Virus record (IMG/VR): IMGVR_UViG_3300032007_000009 | Length of the DNA stretch: 64,000 nucleotides | From: a virus | Taxonomy: Duplodnaviria > Caudoviricetes | Reading direction: 5' to 3' (one strand) | Shown here: positions 42,620-59,164 of the stretch, piece by piece | How the letters are laid out: every line of letters starts with the position of its first letter | Position numbering within the stretch: position 1 is the stretch's first letter | Translations under genes and position numbers: made by a program | Notes under the pieces: model-generated | Told to the model about the DNA's origin: nothing | The model's database searches: none | Seen by the model: the letters and a program-made list of their open reading frames with translations, nothing else

Positions 42620-44188
42620 TTATTTTTTTGCTTTCTGTTGTTCAAAATCCCAAGCAAGATCATCTTCTAAAACATGTTTCTTAGCAGGATTAATAAGATA
42701 ACCCATTTTAGACATTACATCTCTATTGAGTAATACCTTTTGTTTTTTATTACGATTATCTACTAATGCAAATTCAACGTCAAGTAATTTACGTGAACCA
42801 ATTTGTATACAAGGTATTAAAACAGTATTACGTGGTTCAGTTACTTGACCAACAATAGCTTTAGATTCACCATGTTTAGTAAAATTATATTTTTTACCAT
42901 TTATGGTTGCAATAATAGTATCACCTCTATATTCTAATGATTCACATCCTATTGTAGAAGCTTTAGCACCATTACCAGTATCAAATTTAGCTTCCATTGT
43001 AAATTCATCATCATTATCCATTGTAAATGTAATGTTTTCAAGATAACCAATATCTTTAGGAGCTAATACTAACTGATTAATATCATTAATATTATCAAGT
43101 AATATTTTCATAAAGTTTTCTCCTATTACTTCAGATATACCATCAGTACCTGGAGAAGCATTATATTCAAGAACAACGTTATCTCCAACTTCAGGATTAG
43201 AACCTTTTACAAGTGGCATAATATCTACAGCACACCAAGGCATTCCAGATATCTTAGCAACTTTAAGTGCAATTTCTTCTTGTTCTTTAGTTATATCTAC
43301 TTTTTCTGCTTGTGCACCTAATGAAACATTTGAACGGAAGTCTCCACTTATTTTAACACGTTTCATTGAAGCAAGAACTTTTTGTTCAGTTCTCATTGTA
43401 AGTACATGAACACGAATATCACCACCATCAGCTTCTTCTTTTTTCTGTAAAAGTAATTCTCTCTCAGGATCAATAGCAAAAGCTGTTTGAAGTATAGCTA
43501 AAATCTGTTTTCCATTAGTCATAAATACACCAGTACCTCCATGACCATCAAGAATTTTAACTACATATTCTTTTTTCTTATCTTCTTCTTCATTATTACC
43601 AAGATCTTTATAAATTAATTTTAATTTTTTCTTTAAAGATTCTTCTCCATCTTTAATATCATTTTTTGTTAATAATGCAAACTTAGGTTGAGGAACTTCA
43701 TATCTTTCTAATAATACAGATGATGTATATTTATTAGAAGCCTTCTTAGCAGATTGAATAGGATTAATAACAAAAAATCCCCAGTCTTGTAATTCTTTAA
43801 TTAATTCCATGCATTCTTCAGAATCTTGAACACCAAGACGAGTTATAACAATTGTATCAATATTAGATTGTTCTGTTATTTTATATTTGTTTTTGTTATC
43901 TGAGAATTCAATTTTATCATCAGTGGCTTTATAACTGATTTCTTCTGCAATAAATGGAAATATTTCGACATTTTTACCTTTTACTGCTGCAGTAAGATTT
44001 TTTAATGTCTTATTAGATTTATCATCTCTATCATTTGTAAAGAATAATATATTCTTAAAGAAATAATCCTTATTTTCATTTTCTTTTGCTTCATTTAATT
44101 TATGTTCCATACGAACTTTATCTAAATTATTGAAAACTTCAGAAATTGTAAAAGGATTTCTGTAATCATATGTTTTTGTAATATTCAT
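42620..44188 (-). CDS. rimK: RimK-family ATP-grasp ligase fused to RimB-like retropepsin domain
   Basis: 'VVK.L.G.GGTGV', 'DIRVHV', 'DFRSNVSLG', 'AVDI', 'LEYNASPG'; C-terminal 'AKFDTGN...VLLNR'. Confidence 0.85.
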   Translation of the reverse strand: MNITKTYDYRNPFTISEVFNNLDKVRMEHKLNEAKENENKDYFFKNILFFTNDRDDKSNKTLKNLTAAVKGKNVEIFPFIAEEISYKATDDKIEFSDNKNKYKITEQSNIDTIVITRLGVQDSEECMELIKELQDWGFFVINPIQSAKKASNKYTSSVLLERYEVPQPKFALLTKNDIKDGEESLKKKLKLIYKDLGNNEEEDKKKEYVVKILDGHGGTGVFMTNGKQILAILQTAFAIDPERELLLQKKEEADGGDIRVHVLTMRTEQKVLASMKRVKISGDFRSNVSLGAQAEKVDITKEQEEIALKVAKISGMPWCAVDIMPLVKGSNPEVGDNVVLEYNASPGTDGISEVIGENFMKILLDNINDINQLVLAPKDIGYLENITFTMDNDDEFTMEAKFDTGNGAKASTIGCESLEYRGDTIIATINGKKYNFTKHGESKAIVGQVTEPRNTVLIPCIQIGSRKLLDVEFALVDNRNKKQKVLLNRDVMSKMGYLINPAKKHVLEDDLAWDFEQQKAKK

Positions 44189-44287: not shown

Positions 44288-44845
44288 ATGAAATTAATAA
44301 TAGTTGAAGGAACAGATAATACGGGTAAAGATACTATTATTTCTAAAATCCTAGAATATTACCCAACATCAACAATTATTCATTGTGGGAAACCATTTTC
44401 AAATAAATATTCATGTAAAGAACAAGATGAATTATTTAATTTTTATGCAAATAATATCATAAATGGATTATATGATAATACACATGTTATAATAATGAAT
44501 AGAAGTCATATTGGAGAATTTGTTTATGGGAGGCTCTATAGAAATAGAGATCCAATGATGACATTACATATGATTAATAGTATAGATGAAAAGTTATTGT
44601 CTTGTAAAAAATTAGATATAAGATATATACAATTATTATCATCTTCATTAGATTTATTACATAGAAATGAAGATAATAAATCATTATCAAAAGGAGATGT
44701 TAATAAAATAAAATTAGAAAAACAATATTTTGAAGAAATTTTTGATTTTTCTAAATTAAATAAAAAATTAATTTATGTTAATGATGGAGATGAATTTAGA
44801 AATATTAAAGATATTGTTAATGAAGTAATTAAGTTTATTAAATAA
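44288..44845 (+). CDS. dNMP kinase (thymidylate-kinase-like)
   Basis: 'IIVEGTDNTGKDT' P-loop; 'NRSHIGE.VYG.LYR'. Confidence 0.85.
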   Translation: MKLIIVEGTDNTGKDTIISKILEYYPTSTIIHCGKPFSNKYSCKEQDELFNFYANNIINGLYDNTHVIIMNRSHIGEFVYGRLYRNRDPMMTLHMINSIDEKLLSCKKLDIRYIQLLSSSLDLLHRNEDNKSLSKGDVNKIKLEKQYFEEIFDFSKLNKKLIYVNDGDEFRNIKDIVNEVIKFIK

Positions 44846-44864
44846 TAAATATATAAGTTTATAT

Positions 44865-45563
44865 ATGCAAAATACACAAGATATATTAAATCAGTTTAAA
44901 GAAAAATATAATAATAAAGAATTTCGTATAATTGGTAATGCAGTTCAGCAGTCTAAAACAATTGAATTACAAAATGTTCAGTTTGAAGTAGATAAACCTT
45001 GGATTATAAGAGAACCTAATTATGATTATTTTAATAGAGAATTTGAATGGTATAAGTCAGAATCATTAAATGTAAATGACATTCCAGGTGGTGCTCCAAC
45101 TATGTGGAAAAATTGTGCAACTCCATTAGGTTATATTAATTCAAATTATGGATGGATGATATGGTCTAAAGAAAATGGATATCAATTTGATAATTGTTTT
45201 ATGAAATTATTAAATGATACACATACACGTGAAGCTTGTATGATTTATAATAGACCTAGTATGCAAGAAGATTATTGTAAAGATGGAATGCATGATTTTT
45301 GTTGTACTTATGCAGTTCAATGTTTCTTAAATGAAGATAAAGATAATAATATACATCTTAAATATATTGTTTATATGAGAAGCAATGATGCGGTATTTGG
45401 ATTTGATAATGATGCACTATGGCATCAGAATGTTCAAAATATGTTAGCTAATAAATTAAGTTCTAAAGCTGCATTAAATAAAAAAATAATATGTGATAAT
45501 ATTATTTGGAATACTGGATCATTACATATATATGAGAGACATTTTAAATTTTTAGAAAATTAA
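44865..45563 (+). CDS. dCMP hydroxymethylase/hydroxylase (T4 gp42-like thymidylate synthase family)
   Basis: 'REFEWY', 'INSNYGW', 'DFCCT..VQ', 'YMRSNDAVFGFDND' (Asp at the dCMP specificity position), 'SLHIYERHF'. Confidence 0.9.
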   Translation: MQNTQDILNQFKEKYNNKEFRIIGNAVQQSKTIELQNVQFEVDKPWIIREPNYDYFNREFEWYKSESLNVNDIPGGAPTMWKNCATPLGYINSNYGWMIWSKENGYQFDNCFMKLLNDTHTREACMIYNRPSMQEDYCKDGMHDFCCTYAVQCFLNEDKDNNIHLKYIVYMRSNDAVFGFDNDALWHQNVQNMLANKLSSKAALNKKIICDNIIWNTGSLHIYERHFKFLEN

Positions 45564-45575
45564 AAACTTAAAGTT

Positions 45576-46325
45576 ATGAATATACATATAATAATGCCAA
45601 TGGCTGGTGAAGGTAATCGTTTTAAAGAAAAAGGATATAATATACCTAAACCATTAATTAAGTTAAATGATAAAGAATTTTATAGACATGCTTTAGATAG
45701 TTTTAATAATCTTAAATTATATGGGGGTGATTTAATTAATATTAAACATACATTTATTGTTCGTCAAGAATTTATAGATGATTATAATATTGATAAAGAA
45801 ATACATACAGTTTATCCCGAAGCAAATATAATTGGAGTAAAGAAGACTACTAGAGGTGCATTAGAAACAATAATGTTAGCAAAAGATTTTATTGAAGATA
45901 CTGATTATGTTGTTTCTATGGATTGTGATATTGAGTTTAATTGTCAATCATTTTTGCGTTCTATGTTAATGGGTAGACCACAAATATTGTCATTTTATTC
46001 AAAAGATCCTAAATATAGTTATGCTAAAGTTGAAGGTGGATTAGTTACTGAAACAGCAGAAAAGAAATGTATATCTACACATGCAATAGCTGGATGTTAT
46101 TGTTTTGGGTATGGGAAACAATTTAAAGAATGTGCAACAGAATTAATTAACGAATTTACTGAAGGAAAAATATCTTATAAAGAAATTTATGTATCATTAA
46201 TATTTAATAAATTACCTAAAGCTTTATTAATTGATTGTGATATGCATAAAGATAAGATATGGTCTTATGGTACTCCAGAAGATTTTGAGAATTATGATAT
46301 TAATAGATGTATATGGGACAAATAA
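45576..46325 (+). CDS. Sugar-1-phosphate nucleotidyltransferase (NTP_transferase)
   Basis: 'MPMAGEGNRF...PKPLI', 'DCD', 'EKK.IS..A..G.Y.F', 'GTPED'. Confidence 0.85.
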   Translation: MNIHIIMPMAGEGNRFKEKGYNIPKPLIKLNDKEFYRHALDSFNNLKLYGGDLINIKHTFIVRQEFIDDYNIDKEIHTVYPEANIIGVKKTTRGALETIMLAKDFIEDTDYVVSMDCDIEFNCQSFLRSMLMGRPQILSFYSKDPKYSYAKVEGGLVTETAEKKCISTHAIAGCYCFGYGKQFKECATELINEFTEGKISYKEIYVSLIFNKLPKALLIDCDMHKDKIWSYGTPEDFENYDINRCIWDK

Positions 46326-46876
46326 AAGCAATCATAACGGATTTTGATGGAACGTTAGTAGATACATTTATAGCAAATTTTAATGCATATTTAGAAACAT
46401 TTAAACATTTCGGATATGAATTAACTAAAGAACAATATAGAAAATGTTATGGGTTACGATTTGATGGATTCTGTGATAAAATGAATATTAAAGAAAAAGA
46501 TCGTAAACCAATGAAAGAATATAAAAAAGAAGTATATCCAAAATATTTTAAATATATTGAACTAAATCATGCTTTATTATTTTTTATAAAATATATGAAA
46601 ACATGTGGTATTAAAACATGTATTGCTTCAACAGCTTCTAAAGAAAATCTATATAATGTAATTGAATATTTTAAAATTAAAGATAATTTTGATTTAATAT
46701 TAACAGGTGAAGACGTTAAGTTTGGTAAACCAAATCCTTATGTTTATAATGAAGCATTAGTAAAATTAAATATTAATTCAGATGAAGCATTAGTATTTGA
46801 AGATTCTAATGTAGGTTGTGAATCGGCTTATAAAGCAGGAATTAATTATATTAAAATAACAAATGGGAATTCATAG
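46307..46876 (+). CDS. HAD-family phosphatase/phosphomutase (beta-PGM-like)
   Basis: DFDGTLVD, KPNP, FEDS..G. Confidence 0.9.
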   Translation: MYMGQIKAIITDFDGTLVDTFIANFNAYLETFKHFGYELTKEQYRKCYGLRFDGFCDKMNIKEKDRKPMKEYKKEVYPKYFKYIELNHALLFFIKYMKTCGIKTCIASTASKENLYNVIEYFKIKDNFDLILTGEDVKFGKPNPYVYNEALVKLNINSDEALVFEDSNVGCESAYKAGINYIKITNGNS

Positions 46877-46889
46877 AATTCCCATTTGT
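46859..46889. terminator. Bidirectional hairpin terminator
   Basis: ACAAATGGGAATTC-ata-GAATTCCCATTTGT. Confidence 0.7.
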
Positions 46890-46912
46890 AATAATATATT
46901 CAATTTAATTAA

Positions 46913-48823
46913 TTATATAATTGGATCTCCTTCATAAGGAACAACTTTATAAGCTTCAACAACTTGTTCTACAGGGTTTAATGCAGAACCTAATATTTGA
47001 TTTACATATAAGTTATGAGCATTACCAGTATCTAATCTGATTGCTGCACCAAGTGAACCTATAATTGCAACACCTTTAAGTTCTGTATCAGTTGTACCGA
47101 ACATACCTTTTGTATGTTTACCATTTCTTCCATAAACATCAGCAAAACCAGTTTGTTTTGCTTCAGGATCTTCTACAGTTGCAACACCTTGTCCTACAGT
47201 ATGATTAACAACATTTCCTTTAGCAACAAATATACCATCAAATGTTGAATATTCAGGATCTGTAGTATCTGTTATATAACTATCAATAACTGATGCATTA
47301 ATAACTGCATCTGGACCAATAACAATTGCATTACCTTTAACACCACGTTGACCACAATTTGTTACAACGAATGCACCTTTAGAATCAATGAATCTTGTTT
47401 CGCCACCATCAACACCATCACCAATATTTGATGTTACATAAAGAACAGAACCACCTTTTACTTCTATAGTTACATTGTTTTCTGATTTAATTGCATCATG
47501 ATCATATAAGCCTTCTGAATCATTTTCAGTTGTATCTTTATTGATAATTGCATTAATTGTATCTTTAACAGCAGTAATCTTAACTCTACCTGCATCAGGA
47601 AGATTAGCAATAGAAGGAGCATGACCATCAGTAACAATTACAGCACCATTAAGATATATATCTAATTTATTATCATATCCTCCATTAAGTTTACCTTTTT
47701 TAGAGAATGTAGGTTCAACTATTGTAATCGCATCAATAGGGCGAACGATTGGACGATCAATTTTACCTGTAACTTCTATAACATTATAATTTTCATTGAT
47801 TACATATGCTTGAGGAGAATCAAATAATACTTCTACAGGATCATCCCACACCCATGTTATATTACCAGCAGGAGTAGAAGAAGCAACTACGTTTTCATTT
47901 TCATCAGCATTATAATACCAACCTGATTTAAGGCCATCTTCCAATAATGAAATATTAATAATTTCTCCATTAGTGCCTGCTTCATAATCATCTTTTGTTG
48001 GATATGCAGTAACTGTACCTTCTTCATACATATCTTCAATTGGGTGCATTTTTGCTCCTGAAACACCAGTAACTGCATAATATCCATCATTCTTAGAATC
48101 GAAGTTGTCTTCAGTTACATTAACAAAAGTAAATTCTCCACCAAGAACAATGATCTTACCGTTATCAGTTGTTCCAAATGCATCTTTTGCAGCTTGTACA
48201 TAGAATACACCATCAAGAATGTTAACATTCTTACCATGAACACCGTCATGAACAGTATCAATATAAATGTGAGGACCTGCAACATTCATTGTTTCACCTC
48301 TTAAACCATGACCAATGTTATTGTAAACTGCAAGATAACCAACACCTTGAACTGTCAAATCTTTCCAAGAATCAATAGATGCGTAAGTTTCATCACCTTC
48401 TACAGTTGTTTCTTTATTACATACTACAAAGTTATGGGTATCTTTTGTAAGAGTTACATATAAACCTTGATAGCCTTTATTATTTGATTCTGGACAATTG
48501 TATAAAATACCATAAGCATCATCAGAAATAATTGTTGCATTATTCAATATAATAGTTGTCCATGCTTCTGGCTTAACTGATGTTGCATCAATAACAATTT
48601 GGCCTTCATGAACACCAGCTAATTCATATGTACCACCAGCAGCTAATGTAATAACTTTTTCAGTATGAACTTCACCATTAACTAATAAACCAGTGATTTC
48701 TTTAGTATATATAACATTTCCTAAAGACTTAATAACTGAAATGTTTGGAGTTACATAATTTTCAGAATTCAAATATTCTGTATATAACAATTCAGTTGTA
48801 AATTCAGTTAAGTATTTTTTCAT
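46913..48823 (-). CDS. Cthe_2159 (DUF4353)-like carbohydrate-binding beta-helix protein
   Basis: Two beta-helix blocks ('DLTVQG.G.L....HG...HDGVHG', 'DAIKSENNVTI...GDGVDG'). Confidence 0.7.
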   Translation of the reverse strand: MKKYLTEFTTELLYTEYLNSENYVTPNISVIKSLGNVIYTKEITGLLVNGEVHTEKVITLAAGGTYELAGVHEGQIVIDATSVKPEAWTTIILNNATIISDDAYGILYNCPESNNKGYQGLYVTLTKDTHNFVVCNKETTVEGDETYASIDSWKDLTVQGVGYLAVYNNIGHGLRGETMNVAGPHIYIDTVHDGVHGKNVNILDGVFYVQAAKDAFGTTDNGKIIVLGGEFTFVNVTEDNFDSKNDGYYAVTGVSGAKMHPIEDMYEEGTVTAYPTKDDYEAGTNGEIINISLLEDGLKSGWYYNADENENVVASSTPAGNITWVWDDPVEVLFDSPQAYVINENYNVIEVTGKIDRPIVRPIDAITIVEPTFSKKGKLNGGYDNKLDIYLNGAVIVTDGHAPSIANLPDAGRVKITAVKDTINAIINKDTTENDSEGLYDHDAIKSENNVTIEVKGGSVLYVTSNIGDGVDGGETRFIDSKGAFVVTNCGQRGVKGNAIVIGPDAVINASVIDSYITDTTDPEYSTFDGIFVAKGNVVNHTVGQGVATVEDPEAKQTGFADVYGRNGKHTKGMFGTTDTELKGVAIIGSLGAAIRLDTGNAHNLYVNQILGSALNPVEQVVEAYKVVPYEGDPII

Positions 48824-48923
48824 ATTTTATTAAATATTTTTATATGTTTCTTAATATCTTATTTATTAAAAATAAATATAAAATCATTCTATATTATTAA
48901 TAGAAATATATATTTGTAATTAA

Positions 48924-49811
48924 ATGAGAAGTACTAAAGCAGCTATATTTATTCCTACATATAAAAATAGATATGATGAACTTTTAAATTGTATTAATGA
49001 TATTGAAAAATATGAAGTATTTGTAGTATTTTCATCTTATGACAATATTGAATCATATACAAATAAATATACATGGAAAGATCATATTCATACTTTAGTA
49101 TCTGATGCAAAAACTATTGGTTTAAAAAGACAATTTGGATTAGATGCAATATATGATAAAGGATTTACATATGCAATACAATTTGATGATGATAATAGAG
49201 CATTTGGGGCAAAGATAACTCCAGAAACTAAACGTAAGACATCAAATTCATATGCAAAACAAAAGATATCAATTGAAGAATTAGTTGATAAATTAGTTGA
49301 AACTGCTGAAAAATATGATGCGGCATTTGTATCTCCATCACTTGAATTTTCAATAGGATTTAGTAAACCAGGAAAAGTTTTTGTTAATAGATCTATAACA
49401 TCAGGTCAGTGTACATTACAAAATGTAAAACAATTAAGAGAACATAATTTACATTATGAAGCTGAAGAAATGATTAATGAAGATATTGTTCTTCTTTTTG
49501 AAATATTACGTAATGGATTAACTGCAGTAACTGTTGGAGATTATTGCTATTGTGTATTGGGAGCATCTAATAAAGCAGAAAATTCTTTAGTTAATTATGA
49601 TGATAGATATGATATCTTACATAAGAATATGTATGTTAAATATCCAAATGTAATTAGTCTTTATCTAGATAAACAAAATAGAATAAGAATCAAAACAAAA
49701 TGGAAGAATTTTCCAGATAATACACAAGAAATTACAGATCCTGTTTTTTATGAAATATGTAAAGGATCCGATATAGAAGCAATTAAAAAATACATTAAGG
49801 AAAATTACTAA
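48924..49811 (+). CDS. GT-A glycosyltransferase (TAGT / glucosyl-hmC transferase-like)
   Basis: 'IFIPTYK.R', 'IG.KRQ', 'QFDDD', 'EDI'. Confidence 0.75.
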   Translation: MRSTKAAIFIPTYKNRYDELLNCINDIEKYEVFVVFSSYDNIESYTNKYTWKDHIHTLVSDAKTIGLKRQFGLDAIYDKGFTYAIQFDDDNRAFGAKITPETKRKTSNSYAKQKISIEELVDKLVETAEKYDAAFVSPSLEFSIGFSKPGKVFVNRSITSGQCTLQNVKQLREHNLHYEAEEMINEDIVLLFEILRNGLTAVTVGDYCYCVLGASNKAENSLVNYDDRYDILHKNMYVKYPNVISLYLDKQNRIRIKTKWKNFPDNTQEITDPVFYEICKGSDIEAIKKYIKENY

Positions 49812-50665
49812 TGAAAATAAGTATTCAAGGTCATTCTGGTTGTGATATTGAAATAATTGATAAAGATAGTAATTTATTTGTTAGAAAATCTACTAAGGAT
49901 ACTTCTTATTTTAAACGATTATTATTACAAGCAGAAAAACAAAAATCAGATGATTGTATAGGTAAGAATATATTAAATCCTAATATATATGAAATAGAAC
50001 AAACAGATAATGAAGCATATATGATTATGGATTATATATATGCTAATAATTTTATTGATTTTTTTGAACATGCATCATCTTCACAAATTGATAATTTTAT
50101 TGATATATTCATAAAATATATTAAAGACGAATATGATAAATGTGAAATAACAAAAATAGATAAATCTATGTTTGTAAATAAATTTTTATCTGTTGAAAAA
50201 AATTGTTATAAAAATGAATTATTGAAAAATAATAATCTTGTAAATACTATATTAGAAAAAAGTAAACAAAAGTTTAATCAATTACCTGAATATATTGAAT
50301 TACCTATTGGTAAATGTCATGGTGATTTAACATTTTCAAATATATTATTTTCAACAGACAATATATATTTTATTGATTATTTGGATTCTTTTATAGAAAC
50401 TCCAATTCAAGATATTGTTAAATTACGACAAGATACAAAATATTTTTGGTCTGTTATGATGTATCATAATAAATACGATATTGTTAGACTTAATATGATT
50501 TTCAATTATATTGATAATAAGATTGATAAATATTTCATTAATGATCAATATTATAAAAACATATATGATACATTACAATTAATGAATATTCTTCGTATAT
50601 TACCGTATGTGAAAAATATAAAAATACGAGATTTTGTTTTAAATATTTTAACATCATTAACATGA
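49811..50665 (+). CDS. APH/choline-kinase-like phosphotransferase
   Basis: 'GHSG', 'CHGDLTFSNILF', 'FID.LD', 'D..KLRQD'. Confidence 0.8.
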   Translation: MKISIQGHSGCDIEIIDKDSNLFVRKSTKDTSYFKRLLLQAEKQKSDDCIGKNILNPNIYEIEQTDNEAYMIMDYIYANNFIDFFEHASSSQIDNFIDIFIKYIKDEYDKCEITKIDKSMFVNKFLSVEKNCYKNELLKNNNLVNTILEKSKQKFNQLPEYIELPIGKCHGDLTFSNILFSTDNIYFIDYLDSFIETPIQDIVKLRQDTKYFWSVMMYHNKYDIVRLNMIFNYIDNKIDKYFINDQYYKNIYDTLQLMNILRILPYVKNIKIRDFVLNILTSLT

Positions 50666-52311
50666 AAGTATTAATTACAACATCTGGAGTTGGTTCTAAA
50701 TTAGGTTATCTTACTAAGTTTATGAATAAAGCAATGATTAAACTTGGTAAGAAACCAGTTATATCATATATAATAGAACAATATCCAGAAGATTTTGAAT
50801 TTGTAATTTCTTTAGGATATCATGGAGATCATATTAGACAGTTTTTAAAGTTATGTTATCCTGGAAGAAATTTTATATTTATAGAAGTAGATAATTATAA
50901 TGGAGAAGGTTCTTCACAAGCATATTCAATGTTATGTTGTAAAGAATATCTTAATGAACCTTTTATATATAATGATTGTGATACAATTGTAAATAATTTA
51001 GGTTTATACATAAATGATTATAAATTTAAAGATGATTTTATTTGTGGTTATAAAATAGAATCATTAAAGTTTCATACTAATTATGATACATATAATGTAA
51101 GTAATTGGAATCATAATTTAGTATCTGATATGTTTAAAAAAGGAGAAAATACATTACCAACATACGCTTATATTGGTATATGTGGAATTTATGATTATGA
51201 ATATTTTTGGAAATGTGTTAAAGAAGGAATTAATGATAAAAAAATTAAATCTGATTTTGATGTATTTTTAAATTATTATAATCATCAAAGAAATATTATT
51301 AATTATGAAGTTGATAATTGGAAGGATACAGGTAATGTAGATAATATTATTCATTATAGAAATGAAATTGAAGATAATTTAAACATATTAGATAAAAACG
51401 ATCAATCAATTTTTATATTTAAAAATTTTGTTATTAAATTTTTTACTAATAACAATACAGTAAAAAATATTATTAATAGACATAAAGATCTTGGTAATCT
51501 TACACATAAAATAACTGAATACACTACAAATTTTTTTAAATATGATTTTATAAAAGGTGATACTTCCATACATTGGATGAATCCGTATAGATTTAAAAAT
51601 ATGATGTCATATTTTAAAAAGAATAATTTATGGTTAAGTATTAATTTAGAAGACCCAGTATTTTTTGAAGTATATAAGAAAAAATTCTATATTGATAAAA
51701 CAATACAACGTATTGAAATATTTAAAAAAGAATATAACATAAAAGAAGATAAAGATATATTCATAAATGATGTATTAATACCTAAAAAATATACTGTTGA
51801 ATATATGTTATCTATTTTAAGTGAACAAAATGAATATCTTAATTCTAATGCTACATCATGGCATGGTGATTTTACATTAGAAAATATTATTTATAATGAA
51901 GATGAAAATAAATATACATTAATAGATTGTAGAGATAAGTTTGGTGATACAACATTATTTGGTGATAAGTTATATGATTTTGGAAAAATGAATCATAATT
52001 TAACTTTTAATTTTGATAATGCAATAAGTGGAAAATATAATTTAAGTATTAATAATTCTATAATTAGATATTCAATATTAGTTGATTCTGAAGTTTATAA
52101 ATGTAAAGAAACACTAAAAGAATTCTTAAATGAAAATTATCCAGATATTAGATATGATTATATTGAAGCATTATCGGGTTTATGTTGGTTAAATATGTCA
52201 CCATTACACAAGATTGGTAATATGCCTTTGTTATTATTTTATATGGGTAAACTTAAATTATATGAATCAATAAAAAAATTAGAAAAAAAATATGAAGATA
52301 ATTGTAATTAG
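50662..52311 (+). CDS. NTP-transferase fused to APH-like kinase
   Basis: N-terminal 'TSGVGSKL..LT...NKA', 'DCD', 'W.DTGN'; C-terminal 'HGDFTLENII...IDCR..FG...GD.LYD'. Confidence 0.85.
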   Translation: MKVLITTSGVGSKLGYLTKFMNKAMIKLGKKPVISYIIEQYPEDFEFVISLGYHGDHIRQFLKLCYPGRNFIFIEVDNYNGEGSSQAYSMLCCKEYLNEPFIYNDCDTIVNNLGLYINDYKFKDDFICGYKIESLKFHTNYDTYNVSNWNHNLVSDMFKKGENTLPTYAYIGICGIYDYEYFWKCVKEGINDKKIKSDFDVFLNYYNHQRNIINYEVDNWKDTGNVDNIIHYRNEIEDNLNILDKNDQSIFIFKNFVIKFFTNNNTVKNIINRHKDLGNLTHKITEYTTNFFKYDFIKGDTSIHWMNPYRFKNMMSYFKKNNLWLSINLEDPVFFEVYKKKFYIDKTIQRIEIFKKEYNIKEDKDIFINDVLIPKKYTVEYMLSILSEQNEYLNSNATSWHGDFTLENIIYNEDENKYTLIDCRDKFGDTTLFGDKLYDFGKMNHNLTFNFDNAISGKYNLSINNSIIRYSILVDSEVYKCKETLKEFLNENYPDIRYDYIEALSGLCWLNMSPLHKIGNMPLLLFYMGKLKLYESIKKLEKKYEDNCN

Positions 52312-52777
52312 TGATTGTGATGGTTGCTTAACAGACGGTAATTTTATTTATACTGAAGATGGTAAAGTTGCAAAAATTTATGGAGCACATGATAATGATG
52401 GTGTTAAAATTTTAAAACATTTAGGTGTTGATATACAATTTATTTCAGGAGATACTCGAGGATTTAATATAACAAAGAAACGTATTGAAGATATGAAATG
52501 TAATTTGGATAAAGTTACAGAATCAGAACGTTTGGATTATATTAAACAATATGTATATTCAGAAGAATATGATGTTGTTGTATTCTTTGGTGATGGTTAT
52601 CATGATGCAAAAATTAAAGAAGCACTTGGTGAAAGCATTGTATTCATAACACCAAATAATGGTAGATCTGAATGTGCTATATTAGCCGATTATGTTACAG
52701 AATCAGACGGGGGTCATGGAGCCTTTTTAGATTTAGCTTTATATATAAATGATGAATATTTTGTTAAGTATGAGTAA
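52292..52777 (+). CDS. KdsC-like HAD phosphatase
   Basis: 'DCDGCLTDG', 'D..G', 'FGDG..D', 'GG.GA'. Confidence 0.85.
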   Translation: MKIIVISDCDGCLTDGNFIYTEDGKVAKIYGAHDNDGVKILKHLGVDIQFISGDTRGFNITKKRIEDMKCNLDKVTESERLDYIKQYVYSEEYDVVVFFGDGYHDAKIKEALGESIVFITPNNGRSECAILADYVTESDGGHGAFLDLALYINDEYFVKYE

Positions 52778-53477
52778 GCATTCATTAATTATACCGATGT
52801 TAAATACTTCGGAAAAATATATTGATAAAGTACCAATTGAATTTCAGTATGATAATATAATTGGTGAAATGAATTGTATTAAAAGCTTATTAAGTATCGA
52901 TTTATCTCAATTTACAGATATATATTTTGTTATACTTAATAGACACGATATACAATTTAATATTATTGAAAAATTACAAGTTTCCATTAGAAATAATAAA
53001 GAATTTAATGGAAAGAATATTAATATATATAATGTAGATAATCCTACACATTCACAATGTGAAACAGTTTATAATGTTATAAAAAAATTTAACATATCTG
53101 GTCATATAGTTATTAAAGATGCAGATACTTTATATAAATGTAATGAATTTATAACAGGAAATACTGTAATGATTTATTCAATGGAAAATTTAAGTATTGT
53201 AGATCCACAACATAAATCATATATAAAATTGGATGATCAAAAATACATCATAAACATAATTGAAAAACGTATTATAAGTAAATATTTTAGTTGTGGTGGT
53301 TATAGTTTTGAATCTGCAGAAGATTTTGTAAATGCATATGAACATTTATTAGGACTTGAAGACATTAAAAATCATATGTATATATCTCATATAATATATT
53401 ATTTAATGCTTTTTAATAAACTTAAGTTTAAACCTATTGAGGCATTATACTATGAAGATTTTGAAATAAATAAATAA
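52770..53477 (+). CDS. Degenerate NTP-transferase-like protein
   Basis: 'IIPM', 'T.SQCETV', 'IKDAD', 'IEKRIIS..FSCGGY.F'; lacks the G-x-G-x-R loop. Confidence 0.7.
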   Translation: MSKHSLIIPMLNTSEKYIDKVPIEFQYDNIIGEMNCIKSLLSIDLSQFTDIYFVILNRHDIQFNIIEKLQVSIRNNKEFNGKNINIYNVDNPTHSQCETVYNVIKKFNISGHIVIKDADTLYKCNEFITGNTVMIYSMENLSIVDPQHKSYIKLDDQKYIINIIEKRIISKYFSCGGYSFESAEDFVNAYEHLLGLEDIKNHMYISHIIYYLMLFNKLKFKPIEALYYEDFEINK

Positions 53478-53484
53478 TAAGTAA

Positions 53485-54795
53485 ATGAATAAAAATATTG
53501 TAATAGGAAGAATTGGTTTAGCAATTAATTTTCAAAGTTTAATAGAAGGTAAGAAAAATCCAAAATTTTCAGAAATTGTATATCTTTATACAATATTAGC
53601 ACAATATAATCCTGATTTTAATTTTTATTTAATTGGACCAAGTGATTTAAATAAACTTACAGAAGAAGAATATAATACAATATTTCCATATCATAATGTA
53701 CATTCAGCATGGCATAATAAAATAAATAAAACTTATAATTATTATGAAATTACCGATTATTTTAAGAATAATAATATAAATATTGATTTTGCTTTAATGG
53801 AAGTTTGTGGTTCTAACAAATTTTCAATACCTGGATTAGTTCCTAAGAAAAACAATACACCTCGTAGTTTATTATTAGTTCATAAGATGTATATGGGACC
53901 TTATGTATATACATTGAATCATTTAGGATGTCCTGTTTATGTAATGTCAGATGATATTAGAAATGTATTATTAAATTTCTCTGATCTTTATAATAGAGAA
54001 CGATTAGTATTTACACAAACAAATATAGTATTACCTACAGTAGAACATATTCAGTCTGAAACAGATTTTACTATGTCAGTTGATAATATTAATTGTATAT
54101 ATGCAAGAATTGAACGTGCAACTTTAATAGGTTTACCAAGTACATGGAAAAATTCAATTAATATTGATAAAAAACTTAATTCTCCAAATAAATATCATGT
54201 TATGGTTATAAGTAACGGATATGGGACTAAACGAATTAATTCAAATCAAACAGTTAAAGATTTAAGATTCAATGGTTATAATGAATATATAATTGAAAAC
54301 TTTAAAGGTACTCCTTATGAGGAGAGTAAGATATATGGGAAATGGTCAGATGAAATGTTTGAGAAATACCCAGATATATTTGATGATACATTCCCATTTG
54401 TATTATTAAAGAATGAAATAGATCAAGCAAAATATTCACTTGTATATTCTCAACTTGATAATTTTGTAACAATTAAACCTTGGGAATTAATTATACTTGG
54501 TATTATTCCATTTATACATCCTAAGTATGATGAACAAAGATTATTAGGTTTGCCTGAATATGTATATTTAAAAAATCCAGAAGATTTTAAAAATAAAGTT
54601 ATGGAATTAGATGCTAATAAAGATCTATATTTAGATATATTAAATCAATGTTTTGATAGTATTAAAGAAGAAGATTTAAATGGATCATATATAAATAATT
54701 TTATATTTTCAAAAATTGGAGAAAATATGAATTTTAAATATGAACCTAAAAATAATGTTGAATTAAAATTTAAAAGAAAACAGAATTATGAATGA
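53485..54795 (+). CDS. Putative GT-B glycosyltransferase, paralog 1
   Basis: 'IYGKW', 'FVT.KPWE....GIIPF.HP.YD'; context of base-modification locus. Confidence 0.6.
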   Translation: MNKNIVIGRIGLAINFQSLIEGKKNPKFSEIVYLYTILAQYNPDFNFYLIGPSDLNKLTEEEYNTIFPYHNVHSAWHNKINKTYNYYEITDYFKNNNINIDFALMEVCGSNKFSIPGLVPKKNNTPRSLLLVHKMYMGPYVYTLNHLGCPVYVMSDDIRNVLLNFSDLYNRERLVFTQTNIVLPTVEHIQSETDFTMSVDNINCIYARIERATLIGLPSTWKNSINIDKKLNSPNKYHVMVISNGYGTKRINSNQTVKDLRFNGYNEYIIENFKGTPYEESKIYGKWSDEMFEKYPDIFDDTFPFVLLKNEIDQAKYSLVYSQLDNFVTIKPWELIILGIIPFIHPKYDEQRLLGLPEYVYLKNPEDFKNKVMELDANKDLYLDILNQCFDSIKEEDLNGSYINNFIFSKIGENMNFKYEPKNNVELKFKRKQNYE

Positions 54796-56098
54796 ACCTA
54801 AGAATGTATTAATTGGAAAAATTGGAAAAACAATTAAAATTAAGAATATTCATATTGAAACTGGAGGAGGACCAGATCTTTTGATATATAGTAATATGTC
54901 TAGAATGTGTCCTGAATATAATTTTTATTTTATTGGTTCTAATGAATTACATAAATGTACTTCAGAGGAATATGATAAGTTATTTCCTAACCATAATGTA
55001 TTTAGCGCATGGTCACCAGAAGTTAGAAAGAATGATAACTATGAGTTGATTTTAGATTATTTTAAGGAGAGAAACATTAAACCTGATTTTGCAATTATTT
55101 TTGTAGGTTTAGTTGGAAATAACAATATACCTAATTTTATGATGAAGAAAAACGGAAGTGGATTTACAACTCCATTGATGTGTTTTAGAGGTTATTGTGG
55201 TCCAATTATTTATACATTGAATCATACAGGATGTCCATTATATACTCTTGCAGAAGATGCTCGTTATATTACAATAAATGCAAAGGATCTTTATAACAGA
55301 GAAAGAATAATTTTCTCACAGATTAATCAAGATTTTGAAGTTACTTGTGGTCATATAACAAATGAAACAGATCATACATTAGTTAGGTCAGTACATCATG
55401 CAAAATATGCCCATTTGGAAAAGTTATTCTTAATGGGTCTTGATGAACATTGGAAAGATAATATAGATATTGATTATAAGTTCAGTCTAGAAAATAAAGA
55501 AGAACCTGTAATAGTTTTATCTAATGGTTGTGGTACAGGAAAGATTAATTGTTCAGGAAATAATAGTTCTAGATTACCAGAATATAAAAAATATATTATT
55601 GATAATTTCAAAGGTACACCTTACGAAAATACAAAAATATATGGTAGTTGGGATAAAGAAATTTATGATCAATATCCACAGATACAAAACAGAATGATTG
55701 TTGATTTGGGTAAAGAAATCAAGGGAGCAAAGTATATGTTAGTTTATTCTCAGGCACCTGGATTTGTAACATCTAAACCTTGGGAAATGATTATTCTTGG
55801 TATTATGCCATTCTTACATCCAGATTATGATTGTTATAATCTTTTAGGATTTCCAGAATATCTTTATCTTAAAGATGAAAAAGACTTTTTAAATAAGATT
55901 GAAGAATTGGATAAAAATCCACAAATGTATAAAGATCTTATGAAACAACTTCAAAGTTTACTTAAACCTGAATACTTTGATGGATCATTTCTTATTAATG
56001 GAATATTTGGTAATATTGCAAAAGATCTTGGATTTAAGTATGAATTTAAACCAGGAGTTAAATCTATAATGAATAGATACGAAAGCTATAAATTATAA
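54788..56098 (+). CDS. Putative GT-B glycosyltransferase, paralog 2
   Basis: Same length (436 aa) and motifs as paralog 1 ('IYGSW', 'FVTSKPWE...PFLHPDYD'). Confidence 0.6.
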   Translation: MNEPKNVLIGKIGKTIKIKNIHIETGGGPDLLIYSNMSRMCPEYNFYFIGSNELHKCTSEEYDKLFPNHNVFSAWSPEVRKNDNYELILDYFKERNIKPDFAIIFVGLVGNNNIPNFMMKKNGSGFTTPLMCFRGYCGPIIYTLNHTGCPLYTLAEDARYITINAKDLYNRERIIFSQINQDFEVTCGHITNETDHTLVRSVHHAKYAHLEKLFLMGLDEHWKDNIDIDYKFSLENKEEPVIVLSNGCGTGKINCSGNNSSRLPEYKKYIIDNFKGTPYENTKIYGSWDKEIYDQYPQIQNRMIVDLGKEIKGAKYMLVYSQAPGFVTSKPWEMIILGIMPFLHPDYDCYNLLGFPEYLYLKDEKDFLNKIEELDKNPQMYKDLMKQLQSLLKPEYFDGSFLINGIFGNIAKDLGFKYEFKPGVKSIMNRYESYKL

Positions 56099-56122
56099 AA
56101 GAGAGTACTTAGTACTCTCTTT
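56098..56122. terminator. Bidirectional hairpin terminator
   Basis: AAAGAGAGTACT-t-AGTACTCTCTTT. Confidence 0.7.
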
Positions 56123-56579: not shown

Positions 56580-56902
56580 ATGAAATATTTATTTTTTTCT
56601 TTTTTACCAATAACTACTTCGATTATTTGTTTTAGGATATATATATAATCTTTATTTTCAATAGGTTCTAAATCATTATCTACAAAATTTATAAATTCTT
56701 TTAAATTAGTTTCAAATTTAGTACCTTTGATTAATTCTTTAAGTTTATCTATAGAAACTTTATCTCCATTTTGTCTACATTGAACAACAATTTCTATAAA
56801 TTCAGATAATTGTTTTTCATTTCTTTCAAACCATTTATCAAGAAGCCAAAATAAATTATCTGTATCTAATTCTTCAAATATATAATTTCTTAATGATTTC
56901 AT
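56576..56902 (-). CDS. Putative internal head protein (MKSLRNYIFE)
   Basis: CTS-like leader. Confidence 0.6.
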   Translation of the reverse strand: MKSLRNYIFEELDTDNLFWLLDKWFERNEKQLSEFIEIVVQCRQNGDKVSIDKLKELIKGTKFETNLKEFINFVDNDLEPIENKDYIYILKQIIEVVIGKKEKNKYFI

Positions 56903-57288
56903 TCTCTTATTCTTATATATATATGTAATCCGCCATCAGAATCCCAAGCATCTCCTAATTCAATATCATACATATTATTTATAATTTCTTCATCTTCAAA
57001 ATCATCTTCCCATGATTTAATATCATCTTCAGTAACACTTTCTATAGTTTCACCTTCAGTATAAATACCAACCCATTTTACATCAGGACCTAATGTTTTT
57101 AATATTTTTTTATTAATTATATTTTCTTTTAAATTAATAAGTTCTCCAATAAAATCTAGAGAAAATTTACCTTTAAAACATCTATCTATTAATTTGTTTA
57201 AAGTATTAATACAACTCCATTCTTTACTTATTTTTGTATTCTTATTAATACGAAGTCCTTCTTTTATATAATTTGTAATTTGTTTCAT
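56899..57288 (-). CDS. Putative internal head protein (MKQITNYIKEGLRINK), acidic body
   Basis: Shares its leader with the DUF285 paralogs but not the repeats. Confidence 0.6.
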   Translation of the reverse strand: MKQITNYIKEGLRINKNTKISKEWSCINTLNKLIDRCFKGKFSLDFIGELINLKENIINKKILKTLGPDVKWVGIYTEGETIESVTEDDIKSWEDDFEDEEIINNMYDIELGDAWDSDGGLHIYIRIRE

Positions 57289-57291
57289 AAT

Positions 57292-57930
57292 TTATATAAT
57301 AACTTTGTCTGCCCATGAATTAACACCCCATGATTTAATTGTTGATGTTACTTTATTTAGACCCCATTTTTTAATATTTAAAATAAGTTTTTTACATCCA
57401 TAAAACATATTTTGACAATCATCTAAATTACTAATATTCCAATCAGATATATCTCCTACAGATTTAACACAATTACATGCGTTAAACATATAAGTCGTGG
57501 TTTTCAAATTTTTAGTATTCCATTTTGATAAATCTAATTTTTCTAAAGATGAACAAGATTGAAACATACCAAACATTGTTTCAACATTACTAACATTCCA
57601 ATCAGATATACCTTCTAATGTTTTAATTCCTGGCATTTCATGAAACATTTTTGACATATTAGTTACATTACTTACATCCCAAGAATCTAATCCTATTATT
57701 TCTTTTACTTTATATTTAGTAAATCTATCATTATTAAAATTAAATAAATTATTCATATTAGTCATTTTAGAAGTATCTATATTTGATAAATCTAAAATTT
57801 CATGATTATTTTTATATCTTTCTTCTATTATTTTTCTAAGGTCTTCAATAGATTCAGGACATAATTTATTTATTTTAATATTTTTATTAATACGTAGTCC
57901 TTCTTGTATATATGATGTTATTTGTTTCAT
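57292..57930 (-). CDS. DUF285 (BspA-like) repeat protein with CTS-like leader
   Basis: 'WDVSNVTNMSKMF' repeats. Confidence 0.85.
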   Translation of the reverse strand: MKQITSYIQEGLRINKNIKINKLCPESIEDLRKIIEERYKNNHEILDLSNIDTSKMTNMNNLFNFNNDRFTKYKVKEIIGLDSWDVSNVTNMSKMFHEMPGIKTLEGISDWNVSNVETMFGMFQSCSSLEKLDLSKWNTKNLKTTTYMFNACNCVKSVGDISDWNISNLDDCQNMFYGCKKLILNIKKWGLNKVTSTIKSWGVNSWADKVII

Positions 57931-57946
57931 ATTATATTAAAAGCAT

Positions 57947-58498
57947 TTATTCTTTATACCATGATGGTAGTGTCTTTAAAGATGTACATTCATCAAACAT
58001 GAAAAACATATCTTTTACATTACTAACATCCCATTTAGAAAAGTCACAGTCTAATGTCTGACACATCCTGAACATCCACGGCATTCTTTTTACATTTGAC
58101 ACATCCCAGTTTGATAAATCTGCGTTGAAGTTCTTACATCCGTTGAACATACTAGACATGTCTTCAACTTTACTAACATTCCAGTTTGATAAGTCAGAAT
58201 TGAACTTACTACAATTATAGAACATGTCTTTCATATTAGTGACATTTGACACATCCCACTTGTCAATCTTTATATTACGTGGTTTAAAACCGAGAAACAA
58301 TACAGACATATCTGTGATCTTTGATACATCAATATCATTAAGGTCTGCATCAGGATCTTTCTTGATACGCTCTTTCAGCATCTTACGTAGTTCATCTTTA
58401 GTATTCGGATGTTCAGTATACTTATTATATTTGAATTTTGAAGCAGTATTTTTATTAATACGGAGTCCTTCTTGTATATATGATGTTATTTGTTTCAT
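57947..58498 (-). CDS. DUF285 repeat protein with CTS-like leader
   Basis: 'FNSDLSNWNVSKVEDMSSMF' repeats. Confidence 0.9.
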   Translation of the reverse strand: MKQITSYIQEGLRINKNTASKFKYNKYTEHPNTKDELRKMLKERIKKDPDADLNDIDVSKITDMSVLFLGFKPRNIKIDKWDVSNVTNMKDMFYNCSKFNSDLSNWNVSKVEDMSSMFNGCKNFNADLSNWDVSNVKRMPWMFRMCQTLDCDFSKWDVSNVKDMFFMFDECTSLKTLPSWYKE

Positions 58499-58543
58499 AT
58501 TATATTAATCTTTATATATGTTGTCTATCATCAATTAAAACAT

Positions 58544-59164
58544 TTATGCTTTGTACCATGATGGGAGTGTTTTTAAAGATGTGCATTTATCAAACATTTC
58601 ACGCATGTCTTTTACATTACTGACATCCCAGTTTGATAAGTCAGAATTGAAATTATTGCAATCATAAAACATTGCGGCCATGTCTTCAACTTTGCTCACG
58701 TCCCATTTAGATATGTCACAGTTAAATTCATGGCATCTACGGAACATACTAGACATGTCTTCAACTTTGCTTACATCCCAGTTTGATAAGTCAGAATTGA
58801 ACTTAGTACATCCACGGAACATCTTGTTCATATCCTCAACTTTGCTAACATCCCATTTAGAAAGGTCTGCATTAAAGTCACCGCAATTATAGAACATGCC
58901 GTTCATGCTAGTGACATTTGACACATCCCACTGGTCAATCTTGATGTTGCCTGGTGTTGAGCACATGAACAATACAGACATATCTGTGATTCTTGATACA
59001 TCAATGTCATTAAGGTCTGCATCAGGGGTTTCCTTTAGACGTTTTTTCAGTATCTCTTGTAGTTCATCTCTTGTAGATGGATATTCAGTATTATATTTGA
59101 ATTTTGAAGCAGTATCTTTATTAATACGCAGTCCTTCTTGTATATATGATGTTATTTGTTTCAT
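58544..59164 (-). CDS. DUF285 repeat protein with CTS-like leader
   Basis: 'FNSDLSNWDVSKVEDM' repeats; one more repeat than its neighbour. Confidence 0.9.
   Translation of the reverse strand: MKQITSYIQEGLRINKDTASKFKYNTEYPSTRDELQEILKKRLKETPDADLNDIDVSRITDMSVLFMCSTPGNIKIDQWDVSNVTSMNGMFYNCGDFNADLSKWDVSKVEDMNKMFRGCTKFNSDLSNWDVSKVEDMSSMFRRCHEFNCDISKWDVSKVEDMAAMFYDCNNFNSDLSNWDVSNVKDMREMFDKCTSLKTLPSWYKA

Follow-up and report, generated by a model that had tools for sequence, protein, structure and literature searches.

The 64,000-nucleotide stretch of IMG/VR virus record IMGVR_UViG_3300032007_000009 analysed here (the window) holds, at positions 44288-56098, a gene cluster that probably equips the phage DNA with glycosylated 5-hydroxymethylcytosine (5hmC), the sugars being activated by the phage itself, and the DNA of this phage is likely to contain 5hmC bearing one to three non-glucose sugars. 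The window spans positions 171968-235967 of a linear viral contig of 236 kb that has 25.8% GC, uses the standard code, is estimated to be 83% complete and comes from a jumbo phage of the bovine gut. We conclude that the glycosyl-5hmC cluster is real and conserved and has private donors. Every element of it has precedent; what is particular here is the combination of two stacked sugar-activation modules and three transferases on a T4-type 5hmC base, together with two linked enzymes encoded elsewhere. Coordinates with the prefix G000:C1 refer to the 236-kb contig and plain coordinates to the window.

The synthase aligns over its full length with T4 gp42 (1b49; motif RSNDAVFGFDND), is 46% identical to annotated dCMP hydroxymethylases and keeps E59, D144, C147, D175 and D183, the equivalents of T4 E60, D145, C148, D171 and D179. 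It has been established for this enzyme family that Asp at ThyA position 177 leads to dCMP and an acid at position 143 to a hydroxymethyl product (PMC13326640), and the cluster synthase follows both rules, with D183 at the former position and D144 at the latter. Asn at ThyA 169 is the mark of 5-hydroxy-dCMP synthases, and all nine D169N enzymes tested (9/9) produced 5-hydroxydeoxycytidine, or 5hodC (PMC13326640). The D169N signature of RB69-type synthases is not in the cluster synthase, which reads RSND where RB69 gp48 reads RSQN and a distant paralogue RSNN; since its residue at 169 is Asp, 5hmC is the expected base. These residues argue strongly that the enzyme converts dCMP to 5-hydroxymethyl-dCMP (hmdCMP), the starting point that an earlier reading of the window from its letters (the sequence-only reading) had proposed from a gp42-type enzyme with an Asp specificity residue, and all the gp42 residues are indeed kept. 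Next to the synthase, here and across the clade, lies a deoxynucleoside monophosphate (dNMP) kinase whose substrate is presumed to be hmdCMP. ThyX is encoded elsewhere in the contig, so the supply of dTMP is covered.

Six sugar genes form two modules, both also present in bacterial polysaccharide loci. The sequence-only reading had predicted private nucleoside diphosphate (NDP) sugars, and the phage does carry its own sugar-activation genes, but the division into two modules had been overlooked. Kinase, phosphatase and nucleotidyltransferase together represent the established logic of sugar-phosphate activation (PMC13326640). Module A comprises an intact nucleotidyltransferase with a conserved PMAGEG..F motif (NT1), a HAD phosphatase, an APH-fold kinase in which HGDLTFSN and D189 are invariant (KIN) and a degenerate nucleotidyltransferase-fold protein (NT2), which is related to NT1 by profile (E 9e-12) and to the Atlas NTP-transferase fold at TM 0.8-0.9. 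NT2 is the partner of KIN: it lies immediately 3' of KIN in every other phage locus seen, and both proteins match, structurally, one 538-aa Atlas cluster, which suggests that the pair also occurs fused. Module A is the core of the clade, usually accompanied by an SDR epimerase, and the order NT1-HAD-KIN-NT2 is the same in bacterial polysaccharide loci, at 37-48% identity. Its closest bacterial copies appear to belong to gut polysaccharide loci of Bacteroidota-like aspect, a lead to the host only.

Module B pairs a nucleotidyltransferase-kinase fusion (NTK) with a KdsC-type HAD phosphatase and is inserted between KIN and NT2, an order seen only in this genome and its near strains. NTK is a distant homologue of RB69 gp52:53 and HY126 AfhE, and both of its active-site motifs are invariant. 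Among 57 NTK loci longer than 9 kb in prokaryote assemblies, KdsC was present in 53 and an Rpe-type epimerase in 44, with an HxlB-type isomerase typically preceding the cassette, and in five phage loci module B plus Rpe is the main module. The complete four-gene cassette (HxlB-type isomerase, Rpe-type epimerase, nucleotidyltransferase-kinase and KdsC-type phosphatase; prokaryote loci L116-L191) sits in polysaccharide loci of Patescibacteria, Bacteroidota and others. Comparison with bacterial clusters whose product is known (C. jejuni HS1 fructose, E. coli K4 KfoE) provided no usable link, and for this reason no sugar is assigned.

Three glycosyltransferases complete the cluster, two GT-B paralogues and one GT-A. 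An AlphaFold-Foldseek comparison, proposed together with the sequence-only reading, placed the GT-B2 model closest to a DNA-acting glucosyltransferase, T4 BGT, which tops the Foldseek hits and aligned by VIA with Z 22.0 (rmsd 3.6, 309 aligned; next row 18.9); T4 AGT (Z 16.4) and the HY126 transferase (Z 14.9) scored lower. GT-B2 is found in every close relative whose locus extends that far, and its modelled BGT-like fold makes it the candidate core transferase for placing the first sugar onto 5hmC. GT-B1, present in some close relatives only, retains the R262/K330/E333 equivalents and falls in a clade of 4 (support 100 in a quick tree); its sequence suggests an accessory transferase of a separate clade. 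The GT-A protein, a candidate for adding a second sugar, matches phrog_842 (E 1e-13) and has an invariant acidic DxD-like motif, D89-D90. Neither GT-A nor KIN had detectable similarity in any cultured phage among the collections tried. The GT-B family is widespread in phages, its homologue search gave no bacterial name, and it adjoins dCMP-type synthases in phages from rumen and marine sources and in cultured phages such as Enterococcus phage 9183 and Pseudoalteromonas phage XG4. The loci of these two (L002 5197-10149 and L003 100-6580, respectively) hold a dCMP-type synthase, an AfhF-type HAD, a nucleotidyltransferase-kinase fusion and a GT-B family member. In some phages the family adjoins HAD-kinase and cytidylyltransferase pairs instead, and across distant phages different sugar modules substitute for one another beside it, which fits a donor for DNA being exchanged.

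The cluster consists of eleven intact genes on the + strand, densely packed (gaps of -29 to +19 nt inside each block), and a 636-aa minus-strand gene at 46913-48823 divides it into blocks 44288-46876 and 48924-56098. Ten co-oriented genes had been counted previously; the actual number is eleven, in agreement with that reading's own gene list, and these do share one strand, but the run is interrupted by the minus-strand gene. The functional labels given to the listed genes all hold in profile searches, PDB alignment and Atlas fold matches (Table 1). Assembled contigs from the run that is the probable source cover the region without a single difference, the gene order recurs in an independent goat-gut strain on contigs spanning the junctions, and more than 20 further phage loci hold related clusters; the cluster is therefore neither a chance arrangement nor an assembly artefact. 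Metagenome runs containing the stretch come from bovine gut and goat gut, and relatives of the phage reach 376-435 kb.

Table 1. Genes and hairpins of the modification cluster and linked genes
Feature	Position	Strand	Basis of assignment or remark
C5-methyltransferase-fold protein, 433 aa	3609..4910	+	PF00145 E 1e-22; 40 kb from cluster
dNMP kinase, 185 aa	44288..44845	+	phrog_761 E 1e-10; RB69 gp45 E 3e-9
T4 gp42-type dCMP hydroxymethylase, 232 aa	44865..45563	+	PDB 1b49 E 7e-56
Module A NT1, RmlA/GlmU-like sugar-1-phosphate nucleotidyltransferase, 249 aa	45576..46325	+	phrog_3980 E 2e-40; TIGR01208 E 7e-7
Module A HAD phosphatase, beta-PGM/YqaB type, 189 aa	46307..46876	+	PF13419 E 1e-35; TIGR02009 E 6e-25
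14-bp hairpin between HAD and inserted gene	46859..46889	.	terminator-like on - strand; consensus match only
Cthe_2159-like inserted gene, 636 aa	46913..48823	-	orthologue annotated PF14262
GT-A, TAGT / beta-glucosyl-hmC-alpha-glucosyltransferase group, 295 aa	48924..49811	+	PF20691 33.6 bits, cut-off 27.5
Module A KIN, APH/choline-kinase-fold sugar kinase, 284 aa	49811..50665	+	PF01636
Module B NTK, nucleotidyltransferase-kinase fusion, 549 aa	50662..52311	+	RB69 gp52 E 6e-21, gp53 E 6e-14 (profile)
Module B KdsC-type HAD phosphatase, 161 aa	52292..52777	+	TIGR01670 E 3e-17
Module A NT2, degenerate nucleotidyltransferase-fold protein, 242 aa	52749..53477	+	without G-x-G-x-R loop
GT-B1, GT-B paralogue 1, 436 aa	53485..54795	+	44% identical to paralogue 2
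GT-B2, GT-B paralogue 2, 436 aa	54788..56098	+	AF2 pLDDT 94
Hairpin closing cluster	56098..56122	.	terminator-like on both strands; consensus match only
Second gp42-like paralogue, 220 aa	G000:C1:4891-5553	-	D169N signature; locus L005

The pathway that we propose would run in three steps. The gp42 orthologue would make hmdCMP, the dNMP kinase would feed it into the dNTP pool and the family B polymerase of the contig, an enzyme whose hits among cultured phages reach just 25-26%, would incorporate it. In each module an APH-fold kinase would then phosphorylate the anomeric carbon of a host sugar phosphate, the HAD enzyme would remove the terminal phosphate and the nucleotidyltransferase would add the nucleotide, a scheme that we infer from the enzyme families and their bacterial context and that would follow the logic of the heptose and the AfhE/AfhF arabinose routes. 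The most likely result is two NDP-sugars: module A would give a heptose or a pentose, and module B a pentose, hexose or heptose of an unusual kind. Heptose has the best precedent. Fold and co-occurrence suggest that GT-B2 would attach the first sugar to 5hmC, that the TAGT-type GT-A would extend it and that GT-B1 would add a further or alternative sugar. The product would likely be a mixture of mono- to tri-glycosylated 5hmC that would block host restriction and CRISPR nucleases. Defence evasion by modified DNA is established for T4 and RB69.

With the glucosyl-5hmC system of T4, T2 and T6 the cluster shares the gp42 orthologue, a dNMP kinase, a BGT-fold GT-B and a GT-A of the second-glucose family. 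It differs in having its own sugar-activation modules and two BGT-like paralogues, in a kinase of the RB69 gp45 type and in dTMP from ThyX, and a gp56-type dCTPase was not found in the contig, which is incomplete. By analogy, the private modules point to a donor other than host UDP-glucose. RB69, which had also served the sequence-only reading for comparison, encodes an arabinose-5-phosphate isomerase and glycosylates 5-hydroxycytosine (5hoC), the product of a D169N synthase (PMC13326640); the parallel in self-made NDP-sugar enzymes stands, but the bases would differ, 5hoC in RB69 and here the 5hmC expected of a D169 synthase. The nucleotidyltransferase-kinase fusion, a HAD enzyme and a private NDP-sugar are common to this cluster and the AfhE/AfhF systems of RB69, DLP3 and HY126 (PMC13326640), as are at most three transferases and the same kinase family adjoining the synthase. 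Here, in contrast, a KdsC-type HAD replaces the AfhF type and there is a second sugar module, and the cluster transferases have no detectable sequence similarity to RB69 gp46/47. An arabinose-5-phosphate isomerase (SIS) was not found in the cluster or the incomplete contig; RB69 gp51, the AfhF-type phosphatase, matches no contig open reading frame, the cluster HADs being of KdsC and beta-PGM types.

The heptosyl-5hmC pathway of Contig 53 is a closer precedent than RB69. In E. coli, a BGT-like GT-B combined with a HAD-APH fusion and a cytidylyltransferase produced mono- and di-heptosyl-5hmC (bioRxiv 10.1101/2023.12.21.572611). Both systems have an APH-like kinase, a HAD and a nucleotidyltransferase feeding a BGT-like GT-B (Pyle et al., bioRxiv 10.1101/2023.12.21.572611), and GT53 (429 aa) is similar in length to the GT-Bs described here, has the same top structural hits and agrees in neighbourhood, from which common family membership is inferred. 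The Contig 53 clusters were mined as C5-MT/5mYOX pathways and assayed on TET-made 5hmC (bioRxiv 10.1101/2023.12.21.572611), whereas here 5hmC would be pre-replicative, the nucleotidyltransferases resemble RmlA and the cluster has two modules and three glycosyltransferases. The fused HAD-APH and cytidylyltransferase are not in the window, where HADs and kinases are separate and KIN matched the HAD-kinase fusion at 12% probability. A search for a 5mYOX/TET gene gave no PF12851 match, and likewise none in the control. Rhizobium phage RL38J1 makes galactosyl-glucosyl 5hoC (PMC13326640); it too combines three glycosyltransferases with a phage sugar enzyme and yields mixed mono- to trisaccharides, but its base is 5hoC and its donor comes via UDP-galactopyranose mutase and not from kinase/HAD/nucleotidyltransferase modules. 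Tri-arabinose and tri-hexose cytosines have already been described (PMC13326640).

Some observations weigh against glycosylated 5hmC built with self-activated sugars. The epimerases of the relatives (SDR with module A, Rpe with module B) were not found in this contig, and GT-B identity to BGT is just 11-13%, with no sequence-level PDB match for the GT-Bs. The dimeric dCTPase families (PF08761, PRA-PH, MazG) were not found in the incomplete contig, nor PF08761 in two relatives that are 97-98% complete, in a search whose control was positive in only 1 of 14 genomes; with no dCTPase found, cytosine substitution may be partial. A candidate dCTPase is the trimeric dUTPase-like gene at G000:C1:162385-163146, where no motif 2 was detected; its homologues lie near dNMP kinase and methyltransferase-like genes in loci L045, L052, L055 and L059. 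CTAG, CATG and GATC remain under-represented (0.54-0.65; CpG 0.54), although such word counts do not discriminate modified from unmodified cytosine. Finally, two relatives have a GT-A of non-DNA type within the cluster, and three more GT-A genes in this genome are possible users of the NDP-sugars.

It is possible, though we consider it clearly less probable than not, that only one private sugar reaches the DNA, with module A, GT-B2 and GT-A giving a mono- or disaccharide. This is a narrower form of the reading defended here, in which module B would be a recent insertion, either redundant, incomplete without its epimerase and isomerase, or destined for another glycan. Outside this genome and its near strains, no phage locus seen has KIN and NT2 separated by NTK-KdsC; the usual Rpe and HxlB partners of module B were not found in the contig, and both module B and the second GT-B are missing from related locus L011. 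Yet NTK and KdsC are intact with invariant catalytic motifs, the independent strain retains both, NTK stands alongside module A and both GT-Bs in L035, and in L036 NTK, GT-B and KdsC occur together with no epimerase.

That the modules feed surface glycans, on virion proteins or on the host envelope for superinfection exclusion, while the DNA carries 5hmC alone or with a host-supplied sugar, we regard as improbable. Both modules are native to bacterial polysaccharide loci, NT1 has homologues in cyanophage sugar islands, and the three stand-alone GT-As (MUCI70-like, GT2 and GT2/GT92-like; G000:C1:72808-73488, 98222-99310 and 155092-155895) possibly serve virion or surface glycans. This is difficult to reconcile, however, with modules that are interleaved with gp42, dNMP kinase and BGT-fold transferases and that have been swapped repeatedly beside one BGT-like family in distant phages.

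Two linked genes elsewhere in the genome, a methyltransferase-like gene and a gp42 paralogue, were overlooked by the sequence-only reading, and the latter raises the question of a second cytosine handle. Equivalents of D143, C146, N169 and D177 are present in the paralogue, and four related genomes, where the gene lies near ThyX, retain N169. With the activity of the D169N enzymes tested (9/9 giving 5hodC; PMC13326640) and the resemblance of module B to AfhE, the activation enzyme of 5hoC phages, this could mean 5hmC from the cluster gp42 and 5-hydroxycytosine from the paralogue, each with its own sugar and GT-B. We find this doubtful, as we do the assignment of the paralogue as a 5-hydroxy-dCMP synthase: it is shortened, has a one-residue deletion within the N169 motif and is closer to gp42 than to RB69 gp48, and in one relative, 98% complete, the N169 paralogue occurs without NTK. 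Its distant orthologues, directly 3' of gp42 in L015, L018, L035 and L239, keep D169, which fits an accessory or heterodimer subunit, and the paralogue may be such an accessory subunit. Still less credence is due to the fullest version, two handles with two unusual sugars, paired BGT-like transferases and a C5-methyltransferase-fold enzyme editing the result, which is undescribed as far as our searches reached.

The methyltransferase-like protein resembles DNA C5-methyltransferases (VIA Z 21-24), and its catalytic C119, E159, R203 and R205 are invariant in 101 sequences. The canonical S-adenosylmethionine (SAM) motifs I (FxGxG) and X (GN) are replaced by QPLTGG and GQNVP, and the Arg of the carboxymethyltransferase CmoX is not present. 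Homologues lie less than 10 kb from a DNA-type glycosyltransferase in 27 of 59 de-duplicated loci and from a synthase in 19 of the 59, loci that are related and hence not independent, and all 17 readable synthases in records with the gene have Asp at 177. An obligatory role was rejected: the gene is absent from one relative, 98% complete, whose cluster is full, and is therefore optional. Loci L009 and L017 have two methyltransferase-like copies beside two GT-Bs. Homologues also occur in Bacillus phage G (L220 1-7032), where gp301 is near genes annotated as alpha-glucosyltransferase (gp306) and glucose-1-phosphate thymidylyltransferase (gp309), and in cyanophage S-TIM5, whose gene annotated as ThyA (L219 2577-3413) carries Asp where specificity for dCMP is set, with the methyltransferase-like gene 2.4 kb away.

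The Cthe_2159-like gene that divides the cluster occupies the same place in several close relatives, is absent from L009, L013 and L035 and is probably not part of the pathway. A RimK-like ATP-grasp gene whose C-terminal part resembles a protease lies divergent from the cluster at 42620-44188 (-), and nearly all close relatives show it in synteny. The paralogous genes that form a run at 56899-59164 (-) share their first 15 residues, and DUF285 repeats occur in at least one of them. The contig starts in a perfect short tandem repeat (G000:C1:1-100), which is probably why it ends there. A promoter scan gave fewer matches than chance (114 vs 137). The cluster genes are also represented in contigs of RNA libraries from one bovine sample, although such contigs cannot show transcription.

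The compact gene set suits published E. coli reconstitution assays, in which the glycosylated base, the NDP-sugar routes and enzymes for 5hmC labelling are testable, and heavy DNA modification could bias the sequencing of such phages. Glycosylation of pre-replicative 5hmC with self-made sugars is, on this reading, extended to jumbo phages of the ruminant gut. It also points to a mode of diversification in which activation cassettes of the polysaccharide-locus type are exchanged, and here stacked, beside one conserved BGT-like family.

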